From Nitrospirota bacterium (lineage in GTDB: Bacteria > Nitrospirota > UBA9217): a DNA stretch of 64,000 nt. This document shows positions 11,046-43,704 of the stretch, piece after piece; positions within the stretch are counted from its first letter, which is position 1; the number at the start of each line of letters is the position of its first letter. The stretch spans positions 32,001 through 96,000 of the forward strand of contig CAVUHW010000020.1 of the NCBI GenBank assembly GCA_963741205.1. The letters are read 5' to 3'. Under the pieces are notes generated by a model that ran no database searches, had not been told where the DNA came from, and saw nothing but the letters and a program-made list of their open reading frames with translations. A program made the translations under genes and the position numbers.

Positions 11046-11063
11046 TTATGATGTGAATCATGG
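11046..11063 (+). promoter_or_regulatory. Crp/Fnr (HcpR/Dnr-like) site 1
   Basis: TTATGA-TGTGAA-TCATGG; TGaTAAAAT -10 hexamer starts 38 nt after the motif start. Confidence 0.7.
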
Positions 11064-11136
11064 TATCCCTGACCGCATCCTGATAAAATTCTGCCATACT
11101 TGCCAGGCGTCGTTAATCTCTTCCGAGGAGGAAACC

Positions 11137-11451
11137 ATGGAAATACTCGATCTCAAGAAGCTCATCAAATTCAGTCCCGACAGGATCTCGCGCGAAATGC
11201 TCTCCGACAAGCCGGAAATGCGGGTCGCCCTCATGTGTCTCGAAGCGGGTCAGAAGCTCGATCCCCACAAGGCGCCGCTGCGGCTCATGATGTACTGCGT
11301 CCAGGGCAAAGGCACCTTCTCGGTCGGCGACGAGAAGATCGAAGCCGGCGAGAAGACCTGCATCCTCTGCGAGCCGAACGTCCCACATGGTTTCGCCGCG
11401 GACAAAGGCGAGAAGCTCGTGGTCATGGCGATCGTCACACCGGTGGAGTAG
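11137..11451 (+). CDS. Cupin-domain protein
   Basis: GAGGAGG RBS; LEAGQKLDPHKAP...GKGTF...PNVPHGF cupin motifs. Confidence 0.88.
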   Translation: MEILDLKKLIKFSPDRISREMLSDKPEMRVALMCLEAGQKLDPHKAPLRLMMYCVQGKGTFSVGDEKIEAGEKTCILCEPNVPHGFAADKGEKLVVMAIVTPVE

Positions 11452-11481
11452 TCTAGTCCCGTTGCACATTTCTTTAGCACC

Positions 11482-11499
11482 TTATGACACATATCATAT
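11482..11499 (+). promoter_or_regulatory. Crp/Fnr site 2, upstream of norCB
   Basis: TTATGA-CACATA-TCATAT; TGtTATGTT downstream. Confidence 0.75.
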
Positions 11500-11568
11500 T
11501 CAAATCGCTGCTAAACTTTGTTATGTTTGCCTCACGCGGGAATTCAATATCTTTTTAAGGAGGTGCAT

Positions 11569-12256
11569 ATGAGCAACAAGGCAGCAAGGAATCTCTTTAT
11601 CATCGGCAGTCTCATCTTTTTCGGGATATTTCTTGCGCTCACGTTCGACACGCTCGGACAACTCGACAAGAGGGCGCCGGAAATCACTCCCGATGTGGAC
11701 GCCGGCAAGATGGTCTGGCACAAGTATGATTGCATCGGATGCCACACCATCTTCGGGAACGGTTCGTACTTTGCCCCGGACATGACCAAGGTCGCGGAGC
11801 GAAAGCCCAAGGGGTACCTCAAGAAGTTCATGATGGACCCCAAGGCCGTGAAGGCGTACGCCGCCATGCCGACCCTCGGCATCACGTCGGATGAGGCGGA
11901 CAAGCTGATCGCGTTCTTCGAGTGGATCGACAAGGTAGACACGAACGGCTGGCCGCCGAAGCCCATTCTGGCGACCGCCGCAGGGGTCGGAGGAAAAGAG
12001 CTTACCGCCGGACAGCAGGTCTATCGGTCACAGGGATGTCATGAATGCCACACCATCAACGGGATCGGCGGCACGTCGGGACCGGACCTCACGAAGGTCG
12101 GGAGCCAGGCATGACAGGGAATGGTTCATCGGCCACTTCAAGGACCCGCAAAAGTTCGTTAAGAATTCGGCCATGCCGCCCGTCACGGCATCGGACGCGG
12201 AGATCGAGCAACTGACCGCCTACATGCTGACGCTCAAGGAGGAGGTGACAAAATGA
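11569..12256 (+). CDS. norC: Nitric oxide reductase cytochrome c subunit, di-heme form (frameshift near 12105)
   Basis: N-terminal TM; GKMVWHKYDCIGCHTIFGNGSYFAPDMT...MP; second domain CHECH...GPDLT...SAMP; overlaps the norB start. Confidence 0.9.
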
Positions 12257-13644
12257 CGATGAAATATCAGAGTCAAAAGATAGCGCAGTACTTTTACACC
12301 TTTGCGATCCTGTTGTTCCTGGTCCAGGTCATCGTCGGCATCGTCGCCGCTTTGCAGTTCATCTGGCCGGACTTCTTCATCCTGAAGTTCAACATCATCA
12401 GGACGCTTCATATCAATGCCCTCGTGGTATGGCTTTTGGCCGGGCTCATGGGAGCGACGTACTATGTCGTGCCCGAGGAATCGGAAACCGAGATCTGGAG
12501 CTATCCCCTTGCCCTGTTCCAGTTCTGGGCAACGGTCGTCGCTATCACCGGCGTCGTGCTCGGGTACATCTGGCAGGGTATCGATCCCCAGGCGAACAAG
12601 CTGGTCTTCGGGACCCTTGTCTTGAATGAAGGCCGGGAATATATCGAGGCCCCGCGCTGGGCGGACATCCTGATCGTCGTCTCGGTGCTCCTGTTCCTGT
12701 TCAACAATTTCATGACCATGCTCAAGACGAAAAAGTGGACCGGCATGCAGGGCGTCCTTCTGGGCGGGCTCCTGTTCCTCGCGCTCATGTACCTGCCGGG
12801 CATGTTCTACACCAAGAGCATGGTGAAGGACCAGTTCTGGTGGTGGTGGGTGATCCATCTCTGGGTTGAAGGCGCATGGGAAGTGATCGCCGGAGCGCTC
12901 CTTGCCTTCATGCTGATGAAGGTGATCGGCGCAAAGCGCGAAGTGCTGGAGAAGTGGATGTACATCGAGGTCGGCCTCGTGATGTTCACGGGCATCCTCG
13001 GCACCGGGCATCACTACTACTGGATCGGGACGCCGAAGTACTGGCTCTGGGTAGGCGGGTTCTTCAGCTCCCTCGAACCGGTCCCGCTTCTTCTCATGGT
13101 GTGGGACGCCTTCCGGACCACGCGTGAAGCACGGAACGTGACAAACAGGGCGGGCCTCTACTACACCGTGGCCCATGCCATCTTCAACTTCGTGGGCGCG
13201 GGCCTCTGGGGCGTGATCCACACCCTGCCGCAGGTGAACAAGTGGACCCACGGCACGCAGATCACCACGGCCCACGGCCACCTCGCGTTCTACGGCGCCT
13301 ATGTGCTGCTCGTGATGTCCATGATCTACGTGACCCTGCCGGCGCTCAGGGGCGTCAAGGAATATGATCCTGGAAAGGCCTTTGCTTCGTTCTGGTGGAT
13401 GACGATCTCGATGGTGTTCATCGTGATGGCCATCACCGGCGCGGGCATGGTCCAGACCTATATGGAACGGCTCATGGGCCTCGACTATGTGGCGGTGAAG
13501 GCGAATTACAACCTCTGGTTCTGGATCATTCGGGCGATCTTCGGCGTCGGATTCCTGGTCGGCGTCGCGATCTTCGTCGTGGACTTCTTCACGCTGGGGA
13601 ATAAGCCGTACCCGGCGCTCCAGACGGCAAAAGAACGCGGATAA
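12253..13644 (+). CDS. norB: Nitric oxide reductase large subunit (cNOR)
   Basis: RTLHIN, GREYIE, WWVIHLWVEGAWE, GTGHHYYWIG, SSLEP, HGHLAFYG; about 12 TM helices. Confidence 0.96.
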   Translation: MTMKYQSQKIAQYFYTFAILLFLVQVIVGIVAALQFIWPDFFILKFNIIRTLHINALVVWLLAGLMGATYYVVPEESETEIWSYPLALFQFWATVVAITGVVLGYIWQGIDPQANKLVFGTLVLNEGREYIEAPRWADILIVVSVLLFLFNNFMTMLKTKKWTGMQGVLLGGLLFLALMYLPGMFYTKSMVKDQFWWWWVIHLWVEGAWEVIAGALLAFMLMKVIGAKREVLEKWMYIEVGLVMFTGILGTGHHYYWIGTPKYWLWVGGFFSSLEPVPLLLMVWDAFRTTREARNVTNRAGLYYTVAHAIFNFVGAGLWGVIHTLPQVNKWTHGTQITTAHGHLAFYGAYVLLVMSMIYVTLPALRGVKEYDPGKAFASFWWMTISMVFIVMAITGAGMVQTYMERLMGLDYVAVKANYNLWFWIIRAIFGVGFLVGVAIFVVDFFTLGNKPYPALQTAKERG

Positions 13645-13670
13645 TAGCTGTTGTTTCACGATGCATATCA

Positions 13671-13706
13671 GGGGGGACTGCTTATTGCCGTCCCCCCTTT
13701 TTGTTT
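13671..13706 (+). terminator. Intrinsic terminator after norB
   Basis: GGGGGGAC...GTCCCCCC followed by TTTTTGTTTT. Confidence 0.85.
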
Positions 13707-13837
13707 TATGAACTCTGAGAAAAAGAACTCAGGTGCTTTGCATCGTCGGTGGAATTCTGATAAAGTAAGGGAAAATGACTCACTGACCGGCGAGCGCCAC
13801 CAAGTGCTCGTTAGGGAGAACGGGGCATACAACAATT

Positions 13838-14224: not shown

Positions 14225-14272
14225 GGAATAAGGACTGAGGCGTCCCGGATTGATCATCCCGAACGATATCAG

Positions 14273-14630: not shown

Positions 14631-14710
14631 AGGCCCTCTTGAAGCCTCTGCGACCGGTTTTATTGAAATCCGCTCGCCGGTTCTACTTCACATCAACCTG
14701 AAAGAGCAGT

Positions 14711-16237
14711 CCTGATAACTGCGCTGGGACTTTTTCACTCACATTCCCCAACGAGGGCGCACTGATCAAGCGATACATCTTGCCCTTGACTCTTGAGCCC
14801 GCTAGGGCGCCAGACTTACCTCGTAACAGCCATGCCTGATGCGATGACAGAACTCAAACTTATCATCGCCTACCGCCAACTGAGGATGACTCGCTCCCGC
14901 ATGATGCACAATCCGCCCGGCTATCTGAACCAGCTTCCAACGAAACGTGGCCATAGTATGCCGCGCCGACGTTTCGATGCAGGAAAGTCGTTTGAACCCA
15001 AGGAAAAGATTGTAGGCGATCACGCCAATGCGGAAATACACGGCATTGGCGTAGCTTTGACCGCAAGGCATCTGATCCTGGCCGAAGCCGTATTTGAGCT
15101 CTTTATTGAAGTTCTCCGCCTGCCCGCGCTGATTGTGCCAGCTTAGCACCGTCTGTGCATCCTTTTCTCCTCCGGCCAGTTCGACGCCACTGCATAGTGA
15201 TGATACTTTCCACAGGTTGCATCAAACAGGTCCTGCTGCTTCCGAAGTTCACGCTTTATCACCAGGCGGAATGATGCTTTCGTCTTGTTCATCGTATGTA
15301 CGGCATCGGCAAGCTCATAACCACAGCCCTTTTGCGGCTCTCTCCATGCCGCTTCCGGGATCGTTGTGATAAGCTCCTGCACCGCCGCGTCCTGATCCGC
15401 AGTAATCGTCCACAGCACCGTGTCTTCTTCCAACTCGTTGATGAACTCCGCCTGATAGGAGGCGCTGTCGGCCGAGACCTGGCTATCCGCTTACTTTTGG
15501 GCAAGCACTCTTGGCATCGACGGTAAAACGCCACATGACCGGCAGCGGGTGATTCGTTGCCTTCGCGAAATTCATCGAGCAGGCAAATGGCGGGCTCGAT
15601 CAGAAACCCCACATCGGCATATACCCTTTGTCGCCCTGGTAGGTAAATCGAGCGTCCGCTTTTTCCGCCTCTACCTGCATGGCGTCCATATCGAGAGTGT
15701 ATCCAATAGGGGATCTCGTCGCAGTAACCGATGATTAAGAATGTCCCGAATCTGTCCGAGACAAATGAGCCCTGTCTGATTGTTCTTTGCGTCTCCCATG
15801 CGGCGCAGCCAGTCGCCGATAGTATCGGGGTCGGGAATCTTTTCCCGATAAACCAGATTAAGCAAAGGCTTTTCCTGATGTAACTCACGCATATCTTCGA
15901 GACGACGGCCTCCTGCCTGGAGCATTAGAACCAGAGTGTCTACAAATGCCGAGGGATAATAGCCGCGATTGCTGCCCGGTTCCGGCAGATGCTGGTCGGC
16001 GAGCTCTCGGAGACCCATACTGTGATTGTATTCCGCAAGGAGGGCAAAGCCCGCATGAGCGGTCAACTCCTCGCTCGTTTTTTCGAGCTTGAATCCGAAC
16101 ACGGTTTGTCGTATCATGCTTTCACCTTGTTGGTTAAAGGGATTTGCTTGGTGGCAATCCTTTTATACCCGCTCTGTGAGCGGCCAGCAAGGTTTTTTTA
16201 TTGCATAAACGACTTTTGGATAAATTGCGGAATCAGC
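14711..16237 (-). mobile_element. IS1380-family insertion sequence
   Basis: Carries an IS1380 transposase; candidate left end GCTGATTCCGCAATT (minus, 16223-16237); right end near CCTGATAACTGC at 14711 is uncertain. Confidence 0.7.
14802..16117 (-). pseudogene. IS1380 transposase (DDE_Tnp_1_4), split across several frames
   Basis: LTAHAG, GSNRGY, PDPDTIGDWL, EFREGNESP, HNQRGQAENFNKELKYG, ANAVYF.IGVIAYNL. Confidence 0.88.
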
Positions 16238-16245: not shown

Positions 16246-16263
16246 TTATGACCTGTATCATAG
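16246..16263 (+). promoter_or_regulatory. Crp/Fnr site 3
   Basis: TTATGA-CCTGTA-TCATAG; TGgTATGAT -10 hexamer at 16284 (38 nt offset). Confidence 0.75.
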
Positions 16264-16294
16264 CGCCTGACCCCTAATCCTGGTATGATTGACC

Positions 16295-17246
16295 ATGAAC
16301 TTAACGGCCTATCGCAGAATAACCCAGGTGTCGTTCATCCTGTTCATCTTCCTGATGCCGGTGTTCAACATATTCCGGTATGACACGGCAACACACGAAT
16401 TGATCCTCTTCGGCAATGTCTGGAGCCTGGGGTTGAAGCAGGGCTTTTATGCGGACCAGAGCGCTATCGGCGCGCTGCATATCGCCCTCCAGTTTTTTCT
16501 GAAAGCCATCCTCCCCTGGCTCGTGTTCCTTGCCCTGTTCCCGCTCCTCGGCTACTTCACGGGACGGTTCTTCTGCGGCTGGCTCTGCCCCGAAGGGGCG
16601 CTCTTCGAGCTGTCCGATTTTCTGACGCTGCGGCTTCTCGGCAGAAGAAGTCTCTATTCAAAAAAGCCGAACGACCCCGATATACCCCGAGAAAACAGAC
16701 TCCGCTACGTCGATCATCGCTCTGCTGAGCATCGTCGTGATTCCTCTCGTCGGAGGTGTTGCACTCACCGGCTATCTCGTGGCGCCGAAAACCATCTGGC
16801 ACCAGATCACGACGTGGCACTTCACCTTCGGCGTAAAGGCCGGGATCATCGGCGTCGCGATCTACATGCTCATCACCTCGATCCTCGTACGCCACGTGCT
16901 GTGCAGGTTCATCTGCGCAGCAGGGCTCATGCAGATGCTCTTCGGCTGGATCAGCCCCTTGTCCCTCAGGCTCCGTATGGACACCGCGCGGATATCGAAA
17001 TGCACTGACTGCAAGGGCTGTGACAGGGCATGTTTCATGAACGTCACTCCGAGAAAAAACAAGCGGGACATCTCCTGCGTGAACTGCGGGGCCTGCGTTG
17101 ACGCGTGCAATCAGGAACTCGGGCAAAGGCAATGGCCTTTTCCATCTCGGTTTCGGAAAAGCCTGCGTCACAGCCCGAAGAAAATCTGCAAGAAATTCAT
17201 ATCGGATGAAACAGTTAATACGTACATCTGTTTCGTAGATCATTAA
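16295..17246 (+). CDS. NapH/CcoG-family 4Fe-4S membrane protein (frameshift near 16710)
   Basis: GRFFCGWLCPEG, LCRFICAAG, CTDCKGCDRAC, CVNCGACVDAC. Confidence 0.88.
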
Positions 17247-17716: not shown

Positions 17717-18337
17717 ATGTCTGAACATTGCTGCGGTATCCAGGTTGGACAAACTGTACCTGACTTCAAGCTCGAAACCTACGAGCCCACAAGGGGCGAT
17801 TTCGGCGAAATCAGCCTCGCGGGCCCAGATGGCGGCGAAGAAATGGACTGTTCTTTTCTTCTACCCCGCCGATTTTACCTTCGTCTGAGCGACGGAATTT
17901 GCTGCTCTGGCAGAGCAGTATGATGAATTCAAGAAGGCCGGCGCCGAGATCGTGACAGTAAGCACGGACACGAAATTCGTGCACCTTGCGTGGCAACGGG
18001 ACGAAAAGATGCTCGAAAAAGTCAAGTATCCCATGGGCTCCGATCCGACCGGCAACCTCTCCCGGATGTTCGGCGTATACGATGAAGCAATTCCGGTCTC
18101 GCACCTCCGCGGCACATTCATCATCAGCCCGGACGGCGTCCTGCTCAATGCCGAAATCAATTTTTACAATCTCGGCAGAAACGTTCAGGAACTCCTGCGA
18201 AAAGTCAATGCCAACATTCACCTCGCGGCGAATCCCGCCGAAGCCTGCCCCACAAAGTGGAGCAAAAGAAGGCGACAAGACGTTGAAGCCCTCCGCCAAG
18301 ATGGTCGGCAAAGTTTACGAGGCGCATGAACAAATGA
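17717..18337 (+). CDS. prxU: Selenocysteine-containing AhpC/Prx1 peroxiredoxin
   Basis: FFYPADFTFV-TGA-ATEF puts TGA (17886-17888) at the peroxidatic Cys; VSTDTKFVH, LRGTFII, GRNV, EACP; indels near 17825 and 18270. Confidence 0.88.
17901..17919 (+). promoter_or_regulatory. Candidate bacterial SECIS hairpin
   Basis: GCTGCTCT-GGC-AGAGCAGT stem 12 nt after the in-frame TGA, with G in the loop. Confidence 0.7.
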
Positions 18338-18338
18338 C

Positions 18339-18738
18339 ATGCTGATAACCAGAGAAACGGATTACGCCGTTCGTACGGTTTTGTACCTGGCAAGAGACCG
18401 GGACCGCAGTGCGAGCGTCACGGAAGTGGCCGATGCGATGCAGATCCCGAAAAGCTTTCTTGCCAAGGTCCTCCAGCGTCTGGTACGGCAGTCATATCCT
18501 GACCTCTATCGCGGGGCGTCAACGGCGGTTTCCGTCTTGCTAAGAAACCTTCGGAAATCAGCCTGCTCACCATCATGGAAGCCGTTCAGGGGCCTGCCGC
18601 AATCAATGTCTGCGCCATCGACAGCAAGCGATGCCGCCTGAGCTCGACCTGTTCCGTCCACCCTGTCTGGGTGGATATCCGGAAGGAGCTGGAAAAACGG
18701 CTCAAAAGGAAACGATCGACAAGCTGATAGACAGCTAA
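18339..18738 (+). CDS. Rrf2-family regulator with three Cys (IscR/NsrR-like; frameshifted)
   Basis: TRETDYAVR...IPKSFLAKVLQRL...RGVNGGFRLAK...CAIDSKRCRLSSTCSVHPVW. Confidence 0.9.
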
Positions 18739-18796
18739 CATAATTGCTGCCCAGTAAAACTGGACCCTGGTGGTCCATGCACAAGGAGGCAATAGT

Positions 18797-20199
18797 ATGA
18801 GCGATTATCAATACGATAATCAGACGGTGAAGGGCTTTATCCTCTCCTCGATCTTCTGGGGCGTGGTCGGCATCGTGATCGGGCTCTGGATCTCGGTGCA
18901 GATGTGGATGCCGTCGTGGAACATCCCGCCCTATTTCACCTTCGGCCGGCTCCGGGTCGTGCACACGAACGGGCTCGCCTTCGGGCTCGGGATCGGCGCG
19001 ATATTCGGGATCTCCTACTACATCGTCATGCGGCTGACCAAGCGGCCCCTCCTCTTCCCGAAGCTCGCGCGGTTTCATCTCTGGCTCTTCAATATCGCCA
19101 TTACGCTGGCGGCGCTCTGGCCTCTTTGCCGGCATGAACCAGTCGCTCGAATACGCGGAGCTTGAATGGCCCCTGGACATCGGCGTGGTGATCCTCTGGG
19201 TCATCTTCGCCGTCAATATCTTCGGCACCGTCATCAAGCGCAAAGAGGACCAGATGTACATCTCCCTCTGGTTCATCCTCGCGACGGTCGTCGCCGTTGC
19301 CGTGCTCTATATCGTGAACAACCTGGCGATCCCCGCGGGTCTGACAAAATCCTATTCCCTCTTTGCGGGAGTAAACAGCGCCAACGTGCAGTGGTGGTAC
19401 GGCCACAACGCCGTAGGGTTCATCTTCACCACGCCGATCCTCGCGATGTTCTATTATTTCCTGCCGAAATCAACGGGGCTGCCGATTTACAGCCACCGGC
19501 TCTCCATCATCGCCTTCTGGTCGCTCGTATTCGCCTATCTCTGGACCGGCGCTCATCACCTGGTCTACACGCCGCTTCCTGACTGGATCCAGACCCTCGG
19601 CATCGCCTTCACGATATTTCTGATCGCGCCGTCCTGGGGCTCCGTGATAAACGGCTACTACACCGTGGGGGCCGACTGGTCGAAGATGCAGACGAACTAC
19701 CTGACGAAGTTCTTCGTGCTCGGCATCACCTTCTACGGCCTTCAGACGGTCCAGGGGCCGACCCAGGGCCTCCGGGTCGTGAGCCAGCTCATCCATTATA
19801 CCGACTGGGTGCCCGGCCACGTGCACATGGGCACCATGGGCTGGGTGACCATGACCGTGGTCGCCTCGATCTACTACATCATTCCGAAGATCTACAACAC
19901 GCAGATCTACAGCGAGAAGATCGCCAACATCCACTTCTGGCTCGTCTTGATCGGGCAGCTCATCTTTTCGATCACCATGTGGATCACCGGCATCATGCAA
20001 GGCGCCCTCTGGAAGGCGACGAACCCCGACGGGAGCCTCAAGTACACGTTCATGGAGGGGCTCGCGAAAAACTATCCCTTCTGGCAAATGCGAACGCTCG
20101 GCGGCGTGATCTTCACGGTCGGCATGCTCTTTTTCATCTACAACATCTTCATGACCATGCGCAAGGGGAAGCTTGAACTTGCGCCGGTGAAAGGCATAG
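18797..20199 (+). CDS. ccoN: cbb3-type cytochrome c oxidase subunit I
   Basis: FGRLRVVHTN, EYAELEWPLD, QWWYGHNAVGF, WTGAHHL, YTDWVPGHVH; indels near 19120 and 20190. Confidence 0.96.
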
Positions 20200-20210
20200 G
20201 GGGTGATACT

Positions 20211-21148
20211 ATGGCTGGCAATCTCTACAACAAACCGATACTGTTCGCGATCGTCGCGGCCGTCGTCATCCTGATCGGGACCGCGGCTGACCATGTTCAT
20301 CCCGATGCTGACATCGGAGATGCATCCGAAACTCGCAAACCTCAAGCCCTATACCGCGCTCCAGCTCGCGGGCAAGGACATCTACCAGCGTGAAGGCTGC
20401 AACAACTGCCACACCCAGACGGTGCGTCCGCTCAAGACAGAGGTCATGCGCTACGGCGAATACTCGAAGGCCGGTGAATTCGCTTACGACCGCCCCTTCC
20501 TCTGGGGGTCGAAGCGCACGGGCCCGGACCTGGCGCGCATCGGCGGCAAGTATCCCGATCAGTGGCATGAGATTCACTTTGATAATCCGCAGTCAATGTA
20601 CCCGGAATCCAACATGCCGGCCTACGGGTGGCTCAAGAACAATAAGCTCGATCCTGCAGGAGATCGCATCGCACATGAAGGCGAACGATTTCCCCTATGC
20701 GTCCGACGAAATCGTGAATCTCAAGGACAAGACCGAACTCGCCGCGCTGATCGCGTATGTGCAGGTGATCGGAACGTCGGTCAAGAAAGCTCCTGCCGCA
20801 GCTTCGCAGCCAGCTGTGAAGGAAACGCATATCCCGAACCCGCTGGCCGGCGACCCTGTTGCAATCAAGCAGGGCGCCGCCTTGTTCAAACAGCACTGTG
20901 CCGCATGCCACGGCGACAACGGCCAGGGAGGCATCGGTCCCAGCCTGCTCGATAATACGTTCCTGTATATTGCCGGCGATGTGCCTGACGACGATTATTT
21001 CGAGATCATCAACAACGGCACCCAGCCTGGAATGATTGAGGATGGGCGGACGGCAAAAGGCGGTATGCCCTCCTATTCCAGCACGATCGAGAAGAACAAG
21101 ATCTGGGCGCTGGTTTCCTACATCAGATCCCTCCAGGGGAAAAAATAA
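20211..21148 (+). CDS. ccoO: cbb3 subunit II fused to a C-terminal cytochrome c (CcoP-like) domain
   Basis: GKDIYQREGCNNCHTQTVRP, PFLWGSKRTGPDLARIGGKY, SNMPAY, then NPLAGD...CAACHG...GPSL...GGMP. Confidence 0.92.
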
Positions 21149-21158
21149 GGAGGCACCT

Positions 21159-21345
21159 ATGGCTGAAGAAATCGACAACATACACGACTTCGAAGCAAAG
21201 GATACGGCAAAAAAACTTCCCGCTGGGATGGCAGATGCTGTTCTGGGGCCTGATTCTCTGGGGAATCTACTACACCGCCGCGCATACTCCTGCCATCAGC
21301 GGATGGTCCCAGGAGCGCGCGTATACGGAGTCCTTGAAACCGTAG
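21159..21345 (+). CDS. Small CcoP/FixP N-terminal-like membrane protein
   Basis: AGGAGG RBS; MAEEIDNIHDFEAKDTAKKLP.GWQMLFWGLILWGIYYTAAHTPAISGWSQERAYTESLKP (one indel). Confidence 0.72.
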
Positions 21346-21420
21346 AGCCCCTTAGGGCCGCGATCGCAGTCTATCACGCGTCCCCGACCCAGTTCCTTCC
21401 CTTGCATCGGGGAGGTAATG

Positions 21421-21508
21421 ATGGATATATCCATTGTCGCCACGATCGGATTTACCACGGCGCGTGATCGGGATCATCGTACTCGTTTTTGCGGCGGGAA
21501 AAGGGTAG
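21421..21508 (+). CDS. About 28-aa single-TM micropeptide, copy 1
   Basis: GGAGG RBS; MDISIVATIGFTTAVIGIIVLVFAAGKG after removing one base. Confidence 0.6.
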
Positions 21509-21529
21509 AGCAAAAGCGACGGTGTACTA

Positions 21530-21624
21530 ATGGATATATCGAATCGATTCGCCACAATACGGATTCACCACGCGCCGCCAGTAATCGGCATCATTCGTCC
21601 TCGTTTCTTTCAGCGGGAAAATGA
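21530..21624 (+). CDS. Single-TM micropeptide, copy 2 (indel-ridden)
   Basis: ATGGATATATC...GCCACAATACGGATTCACCAC...GTAATCGGCATCAT...GCGGGAAAATGA parallels copy 1. Confidence 0.5.
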
Positions 21625-21660
21625 AAATTGAGCGAACCCTCCGAGAATTGAGGGCATTTC

Positions 21661-21806
21661 ATGGAAACACAAGCATGGGCATATTTTCTGTTCGGGCTCG
21701 CCCTGGTCGTGCTCTTCGTGATCATCATCGCGCATTATTATTCCAGGAAAGCGGCACAGAAAAGATCGAAGAAGCAAAGCATAAAATGCTGGATGATGAT
21801 GACTAG
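21661..21806 (+). CDS. ccoQ: cbb3 oxidase subunit CcoQ/FixQ-like
   Basis: METQAWAYFLFGLALVVLFVIIIAHYYSRK...IEEAKHKMLDDDD (one indel). Confidence 0.75.
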
Positions 21807-23037
21807 GAAGTTTCACAGGCTCAGGCGGCTAACCGGGGCTGTCCTCCTCTTAATCCTCATCGGTCTCCCCTTCCTTCGGGTAGACGGAGAGAGCGCATTC
21901 AGGTTCGATATCCCGTCGCTCCGTCTCCTGTTCTTCGGAACCGAGATCTGGATGGCAGACTTCTTCATCATCCTGATCGCGGTGATCTTCCTGACCTTTC
22001 TTACCCTCTTCACGACGACCGTCTTCGGAAGGATGTGGTGCGGATGGCTGTGCCCGCAGACGGTCCTGGTCGACGCCACAGCTTTCGTGGAAACGGCGCG
22101 GACAGCGGGGGCATGCGCGCCAGAGCCATTGCCGCCTCGCGCGGGCATGGTGGTAAGCGCGGTCATTGCCGCGAGCCTGATCGGATACTTTGTATCTCCC
22201 TATGATCTTCCCTCTACTGCTCCGGGCCGGCGGTCATCCGGCGAAGATCGTGGCCGGCTCCTGGCTGCCCTCACCGTAATCCTGTTCCTCGATCTTATCG
22301 CGCTGCGGAGACGGTTTTGCGCAACGGCCTGCCCTTACGCAAAACTGCAGAGCGTGCTGTTCGACGACAGGACGCTGGCGGTCGCGTTCGATCCCGACGC
22401 GCTCGAAGAGTGCATGCGGTGCGGCGCCTGCGTGAAGGCCTGCCCCGTCGGCATCGACATCAGGAAGGGTCTCAAATGGCCTGCATCCACTGCGCCGAGT
22501 GCGTGGACGCCTGCACGGAGCGAATGGCCGCGCATAACCGGAAGATCGCTGGTCAAGCTACATCTTCGGGCTGCCCGGGTGAACGAGGAACCGGGCGTCC
22601 GGCTGAATCCCCTGATCACCGGTGTCATGACCGTGCATTTCCCTCGTGTTCCTTCTCTATCTCTCAGCGTCGCGAGTGCCCTTTGACATGAACGTGCGCC
22701 TGAACTATACCGAAGCGCCGGAGATAAGGACGGACGGCAGTGTAACGAACATCCTATGAATTGTCGCATCAGAAACATGGGGAAGATCAGACCTGGAACT
22801 CGACTTGAGCGCGACCGCGTCGGCCGGCGATGGCCCGAATTTCCCCTGATACCGTGACTGCTCCGAAAAGGCGACGGACATCACGAGGGTGCCGTGTCGC
22901 GGTGACGCTCAGACAATCGTGTCAGGCCGGGATACAGCGTCCCCGTGACAGGTCACGCTGTAGCCGTCGCGATCGAAGAGAGATCAATAAGAGTATCGCA
23001 AGACGAGCGTATTTTATGATGCCGAAGAAGCAATTGA
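21799..23037 (+). CDS. ccoG: CcoG/FixG 4Fe-4S accessory protein (many indels)
   Basis: FGRMWCGWLCPQTV, FCATACPYAKLQSVLFD, CMRCGACVKACPVGIDIRKG, CIHCAECVDAC. Confidence 0.88.
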
Positions 23038-23050
23038 AAGAGGTTCGAAC

Positions 23051-23515
23051 ATGCGTTTATTGATTGTCATCCTGGTTCATCTGTGTGTATCTTGCGCTTG
23101 CCGCGACGATCGCGGTCGATAGTCGTCGGTTCACGGAGTTTCGAAGGCATCGTTGTCGAAAAACCTTATGAGACCGGACTGTCGTGGGACGAAACACGAG
23201 CGGACAAAAGCAGAGCCTGGGATGGAAGGTCGTCCGTGCAGGGAGCGACGTTCAAGAAGGCAGGAACGAACTGATCTTCACCATCCTCGACAAGAACGGT
23301 GCCTTGCTTGCCGATGCGGTCGCCAGCGTAACGATCAGCAGGCCGTCGACGCGGGCCTACGACAAGACCTATCCAGACCGACGCGAACAGGACGGCCGTT
23401 ACCATGCGGTCATCGAACTCCCGCTCTACGGAAACTGGGACCTAACCATAGATGTCGGTCCGCAATAATGACCGACGCAGTTTCAAGAATGCAATTTTTG
23501 CGGAACAGAGCGTGA
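23051..23515 (+). CDS. FixH/CcoH-like (YtkA-like) protein (frameshifted)
   Basis: TM helix then GIVVEKPYETGLSWD, ISRPST, GRYHAVIELPLYGNWDL. Confidence 0.72.
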
Positions 23516-23516
23516 A

Positions 23517-23989
23517 ATGAAACCATTCGTACAGCAAGTCCGGCGCTGCTCAGGTGATCTTCCTTGGGATTGTCACTGATGGTCGCGGCTGTCAATGCCG
23601 CCGCTGCCGGACTGATGCCGACGCAGAAACTGACTGCGATATCCAGCATGGCACCTGCGTCCGGGAAACCGGCGACGGAATGACGGTCGAATTCGATATT
23701 CAGCCTAAGCCGGTGGCCGCCATGTCGGAGCTCATGTTCACCGTCACGCTCACCCGGGGCGGAAAGCCCGTTAGCGGAGGCATCCTCGGTCGTACTCGAT
23801 CTCTCCATGCCCGGCATGTTCATGGGAAAGAACCGGCCGGCCCTGAAGAAGGTAAGCGATGGACGATATGAAGGCAAAGGCGTCATCACGCGGTGTCCCA
23901 GCGGGAATAAAGACCTGGCAGAGCTGAAGTCATCGTCGAACACGACGGGAAAACTGACTGTCGCTGATTTTGTGTTCGAGGTGAAATAA
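23517..23989 (+). CDS. Periplasmic YtkA-like protein (frameshifted)
   Basis: DCDIQHGTC, FDIQPKPV, DLSMPGMFMGKNRP, GRYEGKGVITRC. Confidence 0.65.
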
Positions 23990-23990
23990 C

Positions 23991-24671
23991 GTGGAGACGG
24001 GCTATCTCCTGGCGCTTACGACAGGCATCCTCGGAGGATTCGGTCACTGTATCGGCATGTGCGGGCCGCTCGTGGCGTCCTATGCGCTTGCATCGCCGTC
24101 CGGGCACCGCGCCCTTGCCTGCCCGTCTCGCCCCTCACCTCCTCTATAACACGGGCCGCATAACCACCTACGGGCTCATGGGCGGCGTCATGGGGCTGTC
24201 GGGTTCGTTCGTTAATGTCGCCGGCAGACTCGCCGGCATCCAGAACATCGTCGCCGTGATCGCCGGCGTCATCATGATCGTCATGGGCTTAGGCATCGCC
24301 GGCATACTCGGCCAGAACGGCATGGATCGAAAAACATAATATCTTCGTCCTTCGGACGGCCCGCCGTATTATCGCATCGCCTTCAGCGTTCCGGTTCTAT
24401 CCCTTGGGCCTTCTTCTCGGTCTGCTCCCCTGCGGGCTTTCCTACACTGTCTTCATTGCGTCCGCCGGGACCGGCGGAATGTTGCCCGGCGCTCTGACCG
24501 CTCTCTTGTTCGGAGCTCGGCACGCTGCCGGCGCTCCTCCTCTTCGGGACCGTTATCTCGTCGCTCACCGCGTCTCTTCGCGGCAGGATCTACAGGGCCG
24601 GCGGAGTGATCGTCATCATCATGGGGATCTATTTTCTCCTCAAGGGAATGAAGCTCTATGCCGGTCTGTGA
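23991..24671 (+). CDS. DsbD_2/TauE-like membrane protein of cbb3 maturation (frameshifted)
   Basis: GFGHCIGMCGPLV, LLYNTGRITTY, GLLPCGLSY. Confidence 0.85.
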
Positions 24672-27119
24672 TCATTGCATGCTCGAGGTCTCCGAGCGCG
24701 ACGCGGTTTACGGCGAGATCGGCGGCCAAAAAAAGGTCTTCTGCTGCCACGGATGCAGCGGGATCTACCGCCTCATTCACAGATGAAGGCCTCGATGATT
24801 TCTACGCGCAGCGGCGTGAGTGGACGCCCGGCCCGGCGGAAGACAAGGCAGTAGACGTTTCTGCTTTCCTTGACGGACTGCGTCCCGCGGGAAACGAGAT
24901 CGAGACGGACGTGATCGTCGACGGCATCCGGTGCGCGTCCTGCGTCTGGCTGAATGAAAAGATCCTGCTCCGGACAAAGGGCGTTTCCTCCGCCAACGTG
25001 AATTACGCCACGCACCGGGCCAGGATCCGCTGGGACCCCGCGAGAGATCGACATCGGCACGATCCTTTCCCGCATCAAGTCCATCGGCTATACTCCCAAA
25101 CCCTTCCTGTCCGGGGCATGGGAGGACGACCAGAACCGGCAGTCCCGCGACCTGCTCGTCCGCTTCGGCACCGCGGCCTTCTTCTCCATGCAGCTCATGC
25201 TCTTTTCCATCGCCCTGTATGCGGGATATTTTCAGGGGATCGACGAGAAGATAAAGTCAATTTTTCATGTGATATCGTTCGCGCTCACGACACCGGTCCT
25301 GTTCTATTCGGGCTGGCCGATCATCAAGGGATCTTTCCGGGGCCTCAAGAACCGCACGTTCAACATGGACGTCCTGATCGCGGCAGGCGCCCTTTCCGCT
25401 TACGGGTACAGCATTCTTCAGATGATGACAGGCGGCGAGGTCTATTTCGACACCGCGGCCATGATCATCACGCTCATCCTGCTCGGCAGATACATCGAGT
25501 CGGGCGCCAGGAGAAAGGCGTCGGAGACCATCACGCGGCTGATGCAGCTCGGCCCCAGGGAGGCCCGGAAACTGGACAATATCGCCGATCAGGCCTTATC
25601 CCGCGACTCGCTCGACAAGGCCGCCAGGCAGATGGTCCCCGTATCGTCGCTCCGTCCGGGAGACCTGCTCGAAGTCGTCCCCGGCGAAAAAATCCCCGTT
25701 GACGGCTTCCTTGTTGACGGGTCCTCGGAGACAGATGAATCCATGCTTACGGGCGAGTCAAAGCCCTCGCGCAAAGACCGATCGGAGCCGAGGTATTCGG
25801 CGGCACGCTCAATCTTTACGGCAGCTTTGTCTTTCGCGTGTCCAAAACCGGCAAGGAAACGGTACTGGCGCAGATCATCCGGGCCGTTGAGGACGCCCAG
25901 GCGCGACGGGCCCCGATCCAGTCGTTGGCCGACCGCGTTGTCGGCTATTTCGTTCCCGCGGTCCTTCTCATCGCCCTGCTGACGTTCCTGGGATGGCTGT
26001 ACCACGGAGCGCCGGTTTCTCGGGCCGTCATGAACGCGGTCTCGGTCATGGTCATCGCCTGCCCCTGCGCCCTGGGACTCGCCACACCGCTCGCCATCCT
26101 GATCGGCACATCGAACGGCGCTTCACGGGGCATCCTCATAAAAGGCGGGGATGTGATCGAGAAGACGGCATCCGTTGATTTTGTCGTCCTGGACAAAACG
26201 GGCACCGTCACCGAAGGGAAACCAGCGCTCATCAAATCGTTCGGCGTGGGAATGCCGGACAGCGAAGCCTTCAGGCTTGCGGGGTCTCTGGAACAGAAGT
26301 CCAGAACATTCCCTGGGAAGGGCGATTGCCGACGCCGCGCAAGGGCTCGCTCCTTTCGAGGTCCTTGATTTCTCCGCGATGCCGGGCAGAGGCGTCAAGG
26401 GCATGATCCAGGGGAAAGCCGCGCTTATCGGCAGCAGGGAGTTCATCGAAAACGAGGGCATGAGAGGCGACGGTAAACGCCGGACTCGATGCCGGGCAGC
26501 GAGCTGAACTTTCGCAGAGCGCGGAAATCGGAGCGACGGTCGTTTTCCTGTGTTACGACGGACGTCTCCGCGGCGTCTTCGTGGTTTCCGATAAGGTAAG
26601 GAAGGAAGCGGCAGAGGCCGTTGGTATGCTCAAGAATGCGGGGACTCGGCGTTTCCCTGGTGACGGGAGACAATCTGAATACCGCGAACGCCGTGGCAGC
26701 GACTGCAGGGATCGAAGACGGTGAAAGCGCAGGTATCGCCCCTGCAAAAGGCCGGGGAAATCGAGCAGCTTGAAAATAAGGGACGCCGCGTTCTCATGGC
26801 GGGCGACGGGATCAACGACGCACCCGCGCTCGTTCGGGCCACGGTCGGCGTTGCCATGGGCAGGGCCACGGACATCACCCTCGAGAGCGCCGACATCGTC
26901 ATCATGCGGCCCGACCTGAGGCTCATCCCGGACGCCGTAGCGCTCGCGAAAAAGACCTTCAGGGTCATCAGGCAGAACATCTTCTGGGCGTTCTTTTACA
27001 ACCTCGTGGTCGTCCCCCTGGCGATCCTGGGCGTCCTTCATCCCATCGTGGCGGCGGGCGCCATGGCGTTCAGCTCGCTCACCGTGGTCGGCAATTCTCT
27101 GCGCGCGAGGTTACGCTGA
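24658..27119 (+). CDS. ccoI: Copper P1B-type ATPase CcoI/FixI (frameshifted)
   Basis: CDHC, FCCHGC, CASC HMA, GEKIPVDG, ESMLTGES, CPCALGLATP, DKTGT, TGD, GDGINDAPAL. Confidence 0.93.
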
Positions 27120-32786: not shown

Positions 32787-32804
32787 TTGTGATCTATATC
32801 ATAC
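32787..32804 (+). promoter_or_regulatory. Crp/Fnr site 4
   Basis: TTGTGA-TCTATA-TCATAC; TATCAT at 32826 (39 nt offset). Confidence 0.7.
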
Positions 32805-32855
32805 CCTGCCCCCGGTATTGTGGAGTATCATTCCGAAAAGAAGGAGAAGAAAACG

Positions 32856-33011
32856 ATGCTTGCCTGCCCTTTTTGCGATGAACAACTGCAGACAAAGAGT
32901 TCTGAAGGATGGGCCTGCCGGTGCGGGGAGACAATCCCGTTCGGCATGGAGAAAGACGACGAGGAGAATTGCGCCCGCTGTCCGGTCATGAACTGCCCGA
33001 GAAGGAAATAG
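32856..33011 (+). CDS. 51-aa Cys-rich protein (7 Cys)
   Basis: AAGGAG RBS; MLACPFCDEQLQTKSSEGWACRCGETIPFGMEKDDEENCARCPVMNCPRRK. Confidence 0.72.
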   Translation: MLACPFCDEQLQTKSSEGWACRCGETIPFGMEKDDEENCARCPVMNCPRRK

Positions 33012-38237: not shown

Positions 38238-38813
<576 letters not shown>

Positions 38814-39326: not shown

Positions 39327-39424
39327 GATTTCCCCTAATCCATACTTCACGACAGAGCTACGCTCGACGACGGTGCAATATTTCGGCGTAACCCCAGGTT
39401 CACTTCTTGTATTTAGGGTGGTAT

Positions 39425-39491: not shown

Positions 39492-39606
39492 CTCTTAGTA
39501 TAGCACAGATCCTGCGCCGAATACAATTTGGGCATTAGCCCGCCTAGCTCCCCTTCCAGCCACGAGCCGGTCCGTTCTCCCTTTTTCTCCTCGCCCCAGC
39601 ATTTTT

Positions 39607-40944
39607 TCATTGAAGAAGCAACTCTTTTTTTGCAGAAGAAACCTCAAACAGCCGGGGCTTGGGAAGGCCGAATCGGGTCGACAATGAACTGGGATAGGGG
39701 AGATAATTCAGGTTGGCCTGCAACAGTACTTTGCCCTGAAAATCCTTAGGGATTTTGAAATAAAACGTTTCTTTCCGGATTTCCGATGCGTTCAGCCGGT
39801 TATCAAATATTATCTTGACGGCATCGTAAAACGCCAGGGTTTGATTTCCTGCTTCGTCGACAAAGACCACGCGATAGATCCGGCTCCCAGGAAGTATATC
39901 AGCACCTAAAAGTTCCTTGTCAGACGGACCTTCCCCCGTGCGATCATATCTGCCGGCTCCCGCAGGGACCGGGATGAAGACTTTCTTGTTCCCGTTATAA
40001 GCTGCAAGCTCCAGCCACATGTGCCGGAGTTCCTTGCTCCCGGATGGCATCTTGTGCCCTGTCTTTGAATTATCGACAACGACATGGATTTTTATTTCAT
40101 CGCCGGGAGACGCAACCGTTTTTTCTGTTTCTATAATCAGGGTGATCGTCTCCGCCTCTGCTATCTGGGTCTGGGAATGAGCTCCCGGGAACCGGTGGGT
40201 ATACAGGGTTGACCGGTATCGCCCGCCGATACCGAACGTACTGGAAGGGTTAGAAGCCCTCCCCGATTCATAGACCGGTTTTCCCTCTTGGAGGAAGCCT
40301 TTGAGATTCATATGGCAGTCCTGGCATTGAATGCCCTCGGCTGCATAGCGGCTGTTCTTCCATTCCGTGAACGTGGACTTTACTTCGAGTCCATGGTGGT
40401 TTGTCGCGTTATGGCAGATCCCGCACATTTCGCTCTTCGTCTGGAGTTCGGAATAGACATGATGCCAATTGTCCCCCCCGCTAAAAGGTCCCAACTTGCG
40501 ATCCGGACTCGGCTCGGGTATGAAATTTCCATTTCCAGGCGCCGTTCCCTCGAATCCCTTTATGGCATGACAAAAATCACAGACAATACCCGACATCTCA
40601 GGATCTACTTGGTCTTTTGATGTGATGAGATCCCTGCGTCTGAAGGCATCGATGGGAGAATGACATGCGATGCAGGCCCTTGCTTCTTGAACAAAAACAG
40701 CATTTTTTTTAGCCCGGGGAAGGACCTCTTTAAAGTATTGCGCTTCAAACAGGGGGTCTGAAAAGGCTTTCGCATTTGAGATTCCGAATGTTGATTAAGG
40801 ATAGCGGCGTGGCAGGTTTCGCATGTTGCAGAGGGTTGATAACCTTTATACGTTATTTGGTGCGGCGTCCAGACATTCGAAGGTTGACAGTATAATACAG
40901 CATACAATGAATGCCGGATTCAGAAGAACAATCAAGGTCTTCAT
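39607..40944 (-). CDS. Pentaheme c-type cytochrome (c554/c552-4-like; frameshifted)
   Basis: Signal-like start; CETCH, CIACH, CDFCH, CGICH, CQDCH; HRFPGAH, TGHKMPSG. Confidence 0.85.
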
Positions 40945-41351
40945 TATTGCGGGCGCTCCCTTTGTCAGCACACGAGTGTTTGCCGTGCTTGAAGAGTGAA
41001 AGTATCGGAACAGAGTATGATCACACCATAGCAAACATTCTCTCTTTCGTCAAATCGTAAATAATCCTGTATCAGGTGATGATATCTTTCGCAACAATGG
41101 CGCTCCCGTGCAGACAAAATATCCCGTCCACCGTTTCAGTCATTGAACCATGATCAAGACGATCGTATCATCGGTAGCAATGATTTTAAACGGTCCTTTC
41201 GGTTTTTTGGGTCGTTTTCGCCGGCCCATACTCTCACAACACGGCCGTTTTTATAATGCACTTCAAATTCATAATCAGTGCCCTCGAACTGAATATGGGT
41301 CGTTGTTCCATCCTCCCCTTCCAGCCACGAGGCTGGTCTGTTCTCCCTTAT

Positions 41352-41844
41352 TTAACTTAAACTCATACACATGTTCCGCGGTTTAAGGATTATTACTTCC
41401 GGCAACACTTTTTCCACCTCTGCCTCGCCGAGGTATTGCCGGGCCCATCTCTTGTGCTCGTCGGCCGCCTCTTCTTTGCCTGTTATCTTTGCCGATTTCC
41501 TGGCCTCATCCAGATGTAAGAGACCAAAGTGCCCGTTGCTTCTCCCGGCACAATTTGTCGACGAGGAGAAGGTATTCCCACACGCACTTTTTGTGTTCGT
41601 AAACCAATTTTTCTTCGTCCGGGCTCTTCGCAATTTTCTTGTCTTCCTTCCCGCTGAAGGAACGGAGTGCTTGTCTGTTCTGGTGGCACTGTTCATTGAT
41701 GCGGAACTCGTCTTCCGTACTCTGCAGATAGTGCTTCCAGTGATTCTCGACATCTTCTAGAGGCCTGCATTTCATCTCCTCGGCCACGGTGACCGAGGCG
41801 AACATAGTCACGAACAAGACTGCTAACGTTATGTTCTTAACCAT
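41352..41844 (-). CDS. Secreted hypothetical protein (frameshifted)
   Basis: Signal peptide MVKNITLAVLFVTMFASVTVA; helical, Cys-containing. Confidence 0.5.
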
Positions 41845-42382
41845 AGCGGGTCCCCGCTTATTTAAAGCATGTCGCGGCGGTCAGCAAAGACTTAAAGAAC
41901 CACAGTGGCGCGTTTTGTCCGAGAATCTAAGTTTTTTGAATTGATTCTTGATAAATTAAATCGATTCCATACCCTCGGCCAACACCCATGCGGTGACTCC
42001 ATGCTCACGGTCTATGAAGTACGTGATAGGAATTGGATTTTAATGATGGCTGCCGCTCATAAATCTTGAATGCCCTCTAGTGCAAGTATATCAGTGGAAT
42101 GGATACACCGCAAGCGCTTGATTGATATTCTTGTTGTTAACGCGGCCTGAGCGATTAAAGAATTATAAGCGCAGTTGGTCTTTTACAAGGATCAAAAGAA
42201 TACGTTGAGGGCTAGGAGGGCTAAAGTCTCAGTTCACAGTTCAGAGTTATCCCAGTGCGGAGCGCATCGATTTCGGATTGTGGATTGCGGAATGGGACAA
42301 AATAAAGTCGTAATTTCCATAGCATTGACGAGAATGACAAGGATTAAGAAATGACTTCCTAATTCCTCCTGTCGCAAAAACC

Positions 42383-42928
42383 TCATATCCAGTATTCCGG
42401 ATACCTTCTGTTCTTCGAAAGATTATTGACCAGCAGGGCGACGATCAGGAGGATGACCGCACCTGCTCCCGCGGGAACGAACGCGTACAGGAAGCCGAGG
42501 TTGTGCACCTTGGCTCCGCCGATCACGGCGATAAGTGCTGTGGCCCCTCCCGGGGGATGGAGTGTTTTTGTCGCGAGCATGGCGATGATGGCCAGCGAAA
42601 CGGCCATGGCGGCCGCAAGCCAGGTGATGTCACCGAAGAGCCGGTAGCAGGCCACGCCGACAAGGGCTGAGAAGACATGGCCGCCGATAAGGTTCCGGGG
42701 CTGCGCCAGGGGGCTCTTGATCGCGGCGTAGACAAGGACAGCCGAGGCGCCGAAGGAACCAATGAGTAGTGACAGGTCCCGGGGTTCGAAATATCGCGAC
42801 GAGAGATATGCGCAAAGCCCGATGCCGATTACTGCTCCGATCCACGACCAGAGGAGTTCATGCATCGGCACTGCCGGCGGGCTCTTCGCTCCGCCTTTCA
42901 TCTTGGAAAGATATACTGTGATAGTCAT
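42383..42928 (-). CDS. HPP-family membrane protein (putative nitrite transporter)
   Basis: GSFGASAVL, SPLAQPRNLIGGH, TLHPPGGATAL. Confidence 0.93.
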   Translation of the reverse strand: MTITVYLSKMKGGAKSPPAVPMHELLWSWIGAVIGIGLCAYLSSRYFEPRDLSLLIGSFGASAVLVYAAIKSPLAQPRNLIGGHVFSALVGVACYRLFGDITWLAAAMAVSLAIIAMLATKTLHPPGGATALIAVIGGAKVHNLGFLYAFVPAGAGAVILLIVALLVNNLSKNRRYPEYWI

Positions 42929-43051
42929 CAATCACTCACTAAAGTCCCCCCACCCCCGCTTCAGCGATGCAGGGGGTAGCTCTTAATCCCCTTCCCCGGA
43001 TGGCGAGGAAGCTGTTAGGAAGACATCCGCATTCCGCAAATTTAAAAATCG

Positions 43052-43639
43052 TCATTTCCTCCCGATCGACCTCACGATATCGTGGCGGGACACGATGCCG
43101 ATGAGTTTCCCCTCGTTATCGACAACGGGCAGCCGTTTTATTCTTCGTTCGTCTAAAATCTTCGCCACGTCGCCGATTTCATCATCGGCCTTGCTGGTGA
43201 TGGGAGGAAAACTCATGACGTCCCCAACTTTGCTCCCGGATTTCCTGGCCGGCACGGGCTCCCCCAAAAGATTGCGCAAAATGTCTTTAAATGTATGTTC
43301 CCTGGCCATGCCGGCAAGGACCAGGACGTCTGCCTCGCTGATGACGCCGATGACATGGTTAGAATCGTCAACGACGGGCATGCCGCTGATCCTGTTGTCC
43401 GACAGAATCCGCGCCGCTTCGTGAAGGTCGGCGGAGCGTTTGATCGAGATGACATTCCGGGTCATCACCTCCGCTACGGGCGTGCGCGTGGTGACCCGTT
43501 CCCGCGCATGACGGAGCGCGAGTTCGTAAATTTTTTGCAGGTCTTCCTCGGTCACATCGACATAGGCGCCCATGTCCCTGAGGGCCGACCGCAGGTCTTC
43601 GGGTGACGGTGGGTTGCAGTATTCCGGCTGGTTATCCAT
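43052..43639 (-). CDS. CBS-domain protein (HPP partner)
   Basis: YVDVTEEDL linker plus a CBS pair (ISGMPVVD, IKRLPVVD). Confidence 0.92.
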   Translation of the reverse strand: MDNQPEYCNPPSPEDLRSALRDMGAYVDVTEEDLQKIYELALRHARERVTTRTPVAEVMTRNVISIKRSADLHEAARILSDNRISGMPVVDDSNHVIGVISEADVLVLAGMAREHTFKDILRNLLGEPVPARKSGSKVGDVMSFPPITSKADDEIGDVAKILDERRIKRLPVVDNEGKLIGIVSRHDIVRSIGRK

Positions 43640-43686
43640 AGGACCTCGCTTGGTATGCGAACATTAGCAGAATCCGATATTTTTCG

Positions 43687-43704
43687 GTATGACGAAGATC
43701 ATAA
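43687..43704 (-). promoter_or_regulatory. Crp/Fnr site 5
   Basis: Minus strand TTATGA-TCTTCG-TCATAC; TGcTAATGT -10 hexamer at 38 nt offset. Confidence 0.72.

Follow-up and report, generated by a model that had tools for sequence, protein, structure and literature searches.

Which factor reads a short palindrome that recurs upstream of five genes or operons in a single stretch of Nitrospirota DNA, and to which signal would that factor respond? The stretch of 64,000 nucleotides (nt), referred to here as the window, corresponds to C20:32001-96000 of a 4.27 Mb genome that is 84% complete, and a first-pass annotation had proposed that the five motifs define a nitric oxide (NO) regulon. We find that the motifs are most likely sites at which a Crp/Fnr-type activator is predicted to bind, with a code, TATGA-N6-TCATA, that is unlike the known ones. 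The sites, their geometry, their conservation and their co-occurrence with the gene of a candidate regulator are established by computation. Our best overall explanation, i.e. a factor with a VETSIR-type recognition helix that would act from a class II TATGA box on a regulon for nitrosative stress and nitrogen oxides, has in our estimate a probability of roughly 0.7.

The box and its position in promoters

All five motifs were present in the window at the positions and on the strands claimed for them (Table 1), and each is followed by a TAnnnT -10 hexamer at offsets of 38, 40, 38, 39 and 38, four times with an extended TG, as had been reported. The C said to precede the motif is indeed found before all five window sites, but it is not kept in orthologues, and neither is the first T of the original pattern. 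The transcription start sites were deduced from the -10 hexamers, so that -41.5 is a predicted position. The original pattern, TTRTGA-N6-TCATR, has 7 matches in the window versus 0.16 expected, and 7 matches were reached in none of 100 shuffles. The match at 6283 was dropped because it lacks the Y/R positions of the consensus given below as well as a class II -10, and the match at 55019 because it has no -10 and its surroundings look like coding sequence.

A matrix independent of the window was derived from 92 sites at regulator-containing loci of other genomes, the sites being pre-selected by a TATGA-like pattern. According to this matrix the real box is the palindrome TATGAY-N4-RTCATA, with free flanks. 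The genome scan suggested in the first-pass annotation was carried out with it; 13 sites scored 19 bits or more, and the six controls with shifted spacers had 0-1 such sites. Matches below about 15 bits are background (31 at 13 bits versus 12-39 in the controls). The matrix made from the five window sites gave 15 genome matches of at least 18 bits, versus 1-3 with shifted spacers. Several strict-pattern genome matches that fall within coding sequence or overlap a start codon (L016-3001, L018-L022) were left uncounted.

It is conspicuous that the distance between the box and the -10 is nearly fixed. All 13 strong genome sites have a TAnnnT 28.5-31.5 nt from the box centre. At 162 distinct sites in relatives, with both orientations read, an offset of 29.5 nt from the centre accounts for 132 TAnnnT starts and no other offset for more than 28, which bears out the proposed class II geometry. 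The strict box occurs in all 60 genomes of the family, on average 7.85 times per genome; the reversed pattern averages 0.5.

Searching the literature by motif, we found no earlier description of the box, though subscription papers, RegPrecise and figure logos may hold one, and a search for Nitrospirota plus HcpR returned nothing. No ATGA box is described in the available text of PMC3590769, PMC4534486, PMC2908626, PMC12750200 and PMC10187061.

Genes preceded by the box

The targets named in the first-pass annotation were recovered as a Cupin_2 protein, a NorC/NorB-type pair, a Fer4_5 protein, a cysteine-rich open reading frame (ORF) of 51 amino acids (aa), and CBS plus TM_HPP proteins. The box is kept before the orthologues of all five. 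The counts that follow cover the best loci returned and include the window locus itself unless noted. The box lies upstream in 25/25 cupin loci (best of 49 matches), in 23 of the 24 NapH-like loci and in 26/30 CBS-HPP loci (best of 53 matches). For norCB it was found in 21 of the 29 loci with enough upstream DNA, i.e. in the window, in 15/15 close non-self orthologues and in 5/13 loci of a 49%-identical paralogue. This second norCB type (NorB about 49% identical; L105-L117) is common in the family. The Cys-rich ORF has the box at 14 bits in 13 of 23 loci, and in 21 of 23 there is a weaker TGA-N6-TCATA located 61-69 nt upstream of the start; the left half of its window box, TGTGATCTATATCATA, is degenerate in the orthologues as well. 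Downstream control windows gave 0-4 matches, some of them being neighbouring boxes. The Cys-rich protein was matched in 21/60 family genomes, belongs to no Pfam or NCBIfam family, and had Atlas matches that were all under 0.9.

Outside the window, a boxed hcp gene, the product of which is above the NCBIfam cut-off, lies at C12:139256, as had been predicted. Further boxed genes encode a DUF1858-DUF438-hemerythrin-PAS protein (at a weaker site), a DUF2249 protein, another NapH-like protein, a small ferredoxin, two multihaem cytochromes of the HAO-like type, and a Cys-rich FrdX-like fragment (named by eye), and two divergent gene pairs, radical-SAM/MoaD and DUF1858/137-aa membrane protein, are boxed as well. 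A CobW-like GTPase gene (L004:3152-3772) is divergent from a boxed HAO-like gene; its resemblance to the CobW-related selenoprotein model stayed below the cut-off. Box hits at nir and nos genes had been predicted too; none of nirS, nirK, nosZ and nrfA was found above cut-off in this 84%-complete genome. There is also no box before the cbb3 oxidase operon of the window. The surrounding region, 17952-26368, contains AhpC, an Rrf2 regulator and the genes of a cbb3-type oxidase (ccoN, O/P, G, I-like), several of them frameshifted, and no TATGA box. Judged by its predicted members, the regulon is similar to those described for HcpR by Rodionov et al. (PMC1274295). RNA runs had at most 0.08 of the words in common, which does not count as evidence.

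A candidate regulator

The window has no Crp/Fnr gene with a helix-turn-helix (HTH) domain, as previously noted, and the only two found in the genome both lie outside it. One is CRP-like, with the helix REAVSK. The other, C20:183327-184001 (locus L001), is located 87 kb beyond the window, has the helix TTVETSIR, and adjoins the DUF1858/membrane protein pair with its two tandem boxes. We consider it very probable that this protein is the cognate factor of the TATGA box. The box is present in 50 of the 65 related loci. The neighbouring 137-aa membrane protein (four helices; C20:184170-184583, minus strand) is conserved and boxed, is usually encoded beside the regulator and DUF1858, and weakly resembles a segment of heme-copper oxidase subunit I.

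The candidate regulator consists of a cNMP-type sensor domain (Pfam PF00027) and an HTH_Crp domain (PF13545). Its AlphaFold model (predicted local distance difference test, pLDDT, 95.4) has a normal CRP fold, with template modelling (TM) scores of 0.87-0.95 to GlxR and Mtb CRP. In comparison to E. coli CRP, the helix has V in place of R180 (V188 here), keeps E181, has I in place of G184 and keeps R185. The cyclic AMP (cAMP) residues of CRP are replaced (E72 by G80, R82-S83 by Y89-P90, T127-S128 by S134-Y135), and the protein has one Cys, one His and no FNR-like four-Cys Fe-S motif. Taken with the unboxed cbb3 operon, the missing cAMP residues and the single Cys argue against cAMP and FNR-type O2 sensing.

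Matches to the regulator at E < 1e-40 occur in 123 of 251 genomes of the phylum and in 55/60 of the family. Its relatives are nearly all labelled Nitrospirota; the sources of homologues include Actinomycetota, Anaerolineae and Deferribacteres. Among the best 150 matches, about half of the full-length representatives have the helix [VIL]E[TS]xIR. NCBIfam, PDB and Atlas searches returned generic Crp/Fnr relatives only, and a plasmid search only relatives at 27-29%. Family f10 contains strongly diverged VETAIR/VESAIR regulators (L277, L281) with 0-6 boxes per genome, and one of its loci, L403, has two boxes 105 nt apart, about 2 kb from one of these regulators.

Pairing of the box with ExxIR regulators

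Distant regulators with the same type of helix (E-x-x-I-R, hence ExxIR) were investigated at 80 metagenome loci, the best of 565, in which the regulators are 33-59% identical; the contigs were scanned with a 13-row alignment, the 59-row one being too diverse. Near these genes TATGA-N6-TCATA was counted 27 times, as opposed to 0-2 for other spacings, and ATGAY-N4-RTCAT is found in 46 of the 80 loci (49 distinct contexts) versus 0-5 in controls, while the count of TGTGA and TTTGA boxes is 0. Position 3 is a near-invariant A beside ExxIR regulators (A/A 69, versus T/T 4 and G/G 6). The earlier notion of a lineage-specific box had to be given up, as the box accompanies these distant regulators in metagenomes of 34-72% GC.

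The hcp gene provided a swap test. In 22 hcp loci from 40 chosen genomes, an ATGA-type box is found in 19 (17 above 13 bits); two adjoin an HcpR regulator with a PET(I/L)SR helix, and the box there is TTTGA-N6-TCAAG. The remaining locus is truncated.

The box before nirK in Nitrospira

A TATGA box sits before the nitrite reductase gene nirK of many Nitrospira. In family f9 (33 genomes, with a regulator and NirK that cluster with Nitrospira-labelled proteins) the regulator is directly upstream of nirK in 17 genomes, and the box is found in 16 of those 17. Of the 16 genomes without an adjacent regulator, 14 have nirK, and none of the 14 is boxed. The nirK genes that lack the box are more divergent, and a single genus accounts for 13 of them, so that the losses are not independent events. 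Regulator, box and nirK form a conserved unit in this family (L407-L423). The physiological role of Nitrospira NirK is left open in PMC6606698 (it "remains to be determined") and in PMC6478695.

Relation to known Crp/Fnr families

A quick tree was calculated for 87 proteins, selected for the most part by their similarity to the query protein. Gene context served to set the anchors for HcpR1 and NnrR, together with the helix in the case of the HcpR1 anchors (Acaryochloris nor-adjacent, L258, L260, P0103), which are not characterised proteins. The candidate regulator falls outside the HcpR1-type clade (support 98), and together with most ExxIR proteins and an NnrR-like clade it is split from CRP, FNR and HcpR1 (support 99). 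A few ExxIR proteins are on the other side of the latter branch, so the helix does not mark one clade. In other words, the regulator is predicted to act like HcpR, DNR and NnrR, yet it fails their box and helix definitions.

The candidate resembles HcpR1 in its Crp/Fnr fold without FNR cysteines, in the TGA-N6-TCA core of the box, in targets that comprise hcp and ferredoxin-, hemerythrin- and cytochrome c-like genes, and in a gene location that is often beside hcp. The HcpR1 boxes of delta-proteobacteria are wTGTGA-N6-TCACAw in Desulfovibrio and wyTTGAC-N4-GTCAArw in Geobacter and Desulfuromonas (PMC1274295). Position 3 is thus G or T there, whereas it is A here, and the helix R/S/P-E-T-x-S-R contrasts with V-E-T-x-I-R. 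Moreover, the TATGA system can coexist with a true HcpR1 that holds hcp by a TTTGA box (G088, L258). In the strict sense, the interpretation of the box as a variant of the HcpR site could not be maintained, given that the regulator lies outside the HcpR1-type clade and that HcpR1 with TTTGA beside hcp occurs in the same phylum. What stands from that proposal is the class II geometry, a variant box, a shared regulon and the box before hcp.

NnrR of alpha-proteobacteria is placed on the same side of the 99-supported branch and has the same GTT-x-x-T helix start and nor and nirK as targets. The Tyr of a YP motif, Y89 here, may correspond to the conserved Tyr of NnrR (Y93 in R. sphaeroides); it aligns with Y92 of a nirK-adjacent Shinella protein, and Tyr is found in 59% of alignment A1. 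However, the NnrR box, ctTTGcg-N4-cgCAAag, is unlike TATGAY-N4-RTCATA at several positions, and the NnrR helix, L-H-T-V-S-R, has His where Glu181 is found here and Ser in place of Ile184. In Beach et al. 2021 (PMC8510549), a homologue from Nitrospira was classed as NnrR and a TTGCG matrix was used for scanning, in contrast to the ATGA-type box that we see directly before nirK. Their protein, which is near NnrR and keeps the Tyr, probably belongs to the same subfamily as ours. The term nirK is absent from the five text supplements available for that paper.

With DNR and FNR/FixK (TTGAT-N4-ATCAA), the system has in common the class II position, Val-Glu at 180-181 as in FNR, and norCB as a target (DNR). 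It differs from them by Ile in place of Ser212 of FNR, by A instead of T at position 3, by the lack of Fe-S cysteines and by the unboxed cbb3 oxidase.

We would give even odds to a broader view, in which the regulator represents an ancient, undescribed ExxIR subfamily of Crp/Fnr proteins that is related to, and possibly encloses, NnrR, reads A3 via Ile184, controls Nitrospira nirK and serves as the main NO/nitrite sensor of many poorly cultured lineages. The lineages meant are the Nitrospirota including Nitrospira, with homologues named from the three other groups listed above.

Proposed mechanism and alternative explanations

In the mechanism we propose, a homodimeric activator of the Crp/Fnr family with the recognition helix [VILT]-E-[TS]-x-I-R would bind TATGAY-N4-RTCATA. 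As in CRP, the TGA core would be read by Glu181 and Arg185, while a preference for A at position 3 may come from Val180/Ile184. From a box centred near -41.5, which overlaps the -35 position, the dimer would recruit sigma-70 polymerase by class II activation, at promoters whose -10 is good and often extended. The content of the regulon suggests that the signal is probably NO or nitrite. NO would presumably be sensed through bound haem, as in DNR and HcpR. NorCB and Hcp would remove NO, and the putative co-induced helpers comprise the ferredoxin, hemerythrin, DUF1858 and DUF2249 proteins, the HAO-like multihaems, the cupin, CBS-HPP and the Cys-rich protein.

Several observations weigh against this mechanism. 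The genomes compared are kin, so that the counts are not independent. The subfamily has no invariant His, Cys or Met as a potential haem ligand; the conservation of haem ligands is poor even when HcpR is compared with DNR (PMC12750200). NirK of N. inopinata is reported to be abundant under oxic growth (PMC6478695). KETTSR regulators occur with an ATGA-type box (L426, L427), and regulators with an EET(A/V)VR helix have a TTGA box or lack a box (L429-L431). The ATGA-type boxes of the former and the TTGA box of EETVVR indicate that residue 184 alone does not set the code. Finally, there are boxed genomes in which no ExxIR regulator was found in the assembly, i.e. G206 with 30 strict class II boxes, and G141, G183, G015 and G133 with 3-10 boxes each. 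At the 25 sites examined in G206 the 29.5 offset was counted 20 times; DUF1858 and NifU are among the targets, and no ExxIR gene was found near the DUF1858 locus. Ferritin-like, chaperone and peroxidase-like targets (by eye) in this genome suggest a wider redox stress. We take assembly gaps as the simplest reading of the missing regulators; the completeness of G206 and G015 is given as 100%, but their assemblies comprise about 270 and about 80 contigs, respectively. An origin of the G206 boxes as repeats or repressor sites was ruled out, as they are distinct class II sites. The same genome also has hcp paired with a canonical HcpR1, there with a TTTGA box.

The alternative that survives best retains the regulator and the box but takes general redox state, anoxia or Fe-S damage as the signal, norCB and hcp then belonging to a broader anaerobiosis or stress regulon. 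NifU and the other stress-related types in G206 fit this view, and so do the radical-SAM/MoaD pair among the targets of the present genome, the lack of a conserved haem ligand and the constitutively high NirK of N. inopinata (PMC6478695). We nevertheless regard it as unlikely, since the best-kept targets, hcp, norCB, nirK and DUF1858, are the classic HcpR/DNR/NnrR set (PMC1274295), the cbb3 operon is unboxed and the FNR cysteines are lacking.

It is still less probable that another factor, such as the REAVSK CRP-like protein or a non-Crp activator, reads the box, with the ExxIR gene as a mere neighbour or target. This would account for the five boxed genomes without an ExxIR gene and for the two KETTSR exceptions, and the genome also encodes Fur and Rrf2 proteins. 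Such proteins are normally repressors and would not explain why the site is fixed at -41.5, so that both were rejected as box binders. The box, on the other hand, accompanies ExxIR genes on very distant contigs, is lost with them at nirK and swapped with them at hcp. Furthermore, the base recognised by an Arg at position 180 is G3 rather than A (PMC1274295, PMC10187061).

A canonical HcpR1, DNR or NnrR acting on degenerate TTGA/TGTGA sites, with nothing new about the system, seems very improbable to us, even if the regulon overlaps that of HcpR, the TGA-N6-TCA core is common to both, the regulator is sometimes divergent from hcp and a homologue in Nitrospira has been assigned to NnrR (PMC8510549). 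This reading is opposed by the near-invariant A3, a helix unlike those of HcpR1, DNR and NnrR, the position of the protein outside the 98-supported clade, and the NnrR matrix TTGCG-N4-CGCAA, which does not fit the box. Chance palindromes have a negligible probability, as the conservation and the fixed geometry refute them, although matrix matches at the low threshold of 13 bits are no commoner than in the controls.

Features of the window

The assembly has many frameshifts, and norC and the NapH-like gene are among the genes affected (Table 1). The name NorB for the product of 12253..13644 draws on the COX1 family and the linkage to norC. HPP proteins are known as nitrite transporters.

Table 1. 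Boxes, -10 elements and target genes in the window (positions are those of the window; centres are relative to the predicted start site)
Feature	Position	Strand	Predicted box centre	Remark
TATGA box TATGATGTGAATCATG, cupin promoter	11047..11062	+	~-41.5	
Extended -10 TG-a-TAAAAT, cupin promoter	11081..11089	+		
Cupin_2 protein, target	11140..11451	+		103 aa; orthologues 75-95% identical
TATGA box TATGACACATATCATA, norCB promoter	11483..11498	+	~-43.5	
Extended -10 TG-t-TATGTT, norCB promoter	11519..11527	+		
norC-type dihaem cytochrome c	11566..12250	+		frameshift near 12110 in assembly
norB-type heme-copper NO reductase large subunit	12253..13644	+		463 aa; COX1 family, norC linkage
TATGA box TATGACCTGTATCATA, NapH-like promoter	16247..16262	+	~-41.5	
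Extended -10 TG-g-TATGAT, NapH-like promoter	16281..16289	+		
NapH-like membrane polyferredoxin	16295..17246	+		frameshifts near 16710-16770; intact in relative
Weaker box TGTGATCTATATCATA, Cys-rich ORF promoter	32788..32803	+	~-42.5	
-10 TATCAT, Cys-rich ORF promoter	32826..32831	+		
51-aa protein, target	32856..33011	+		conserved CPxC...CxCG...CxxCxxxxCP cysteines
TATGA box TATGATCTTCGTCATA (minus-strand reading), CBS-HPP promoter	43688..43703	-	~-41.5	
Extended -10 TG-c-TAATGT, CBS-HPP promoter	43661..43669	-		
Tandem-CBS protein, target	43052..43639	-		195 aa
HPP-family membrane protein	42383..42931	-		after CBS gene

Three neighbouring features were observed in addition. A stand-alone hemerythrin gene (9141-9545, minus strand), for which no box was found, lies near the cupin-norCB cluster. 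An apparent transposase remnant (by eye; 15289-16117, minus strand) is located between the neighbours of norB and the NapH-like gene. An 838-aa multihaem cytochrome (43754-46270, minus strand), with weak family matches only, ends about 50 nt before the CBS-HPP box.

Implications

The box and its regulator are a candidate addition to the CRP/FNR recognition code, in which G3 would go with Arg180, T3 with ExxSR and A3 with ExxIR. With the matrix, N-oxide regulons can be read in uncultured Nitrospirota and in further lineages, in which sites would escape matrices borrowed from NnrR or FNR. For nirK of Nitrospira there is now a concrete candidate operator together with a candidate regulator, and the nirK genes can be split into boxed and unboxed classes. 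In the present organism, the predicted regulon ties the uncharacterised 103-aa cupin, the 51-aa Cys-rich protein, CBS-HPP and the 137-aa membrane protein to Hcp and NorCB.

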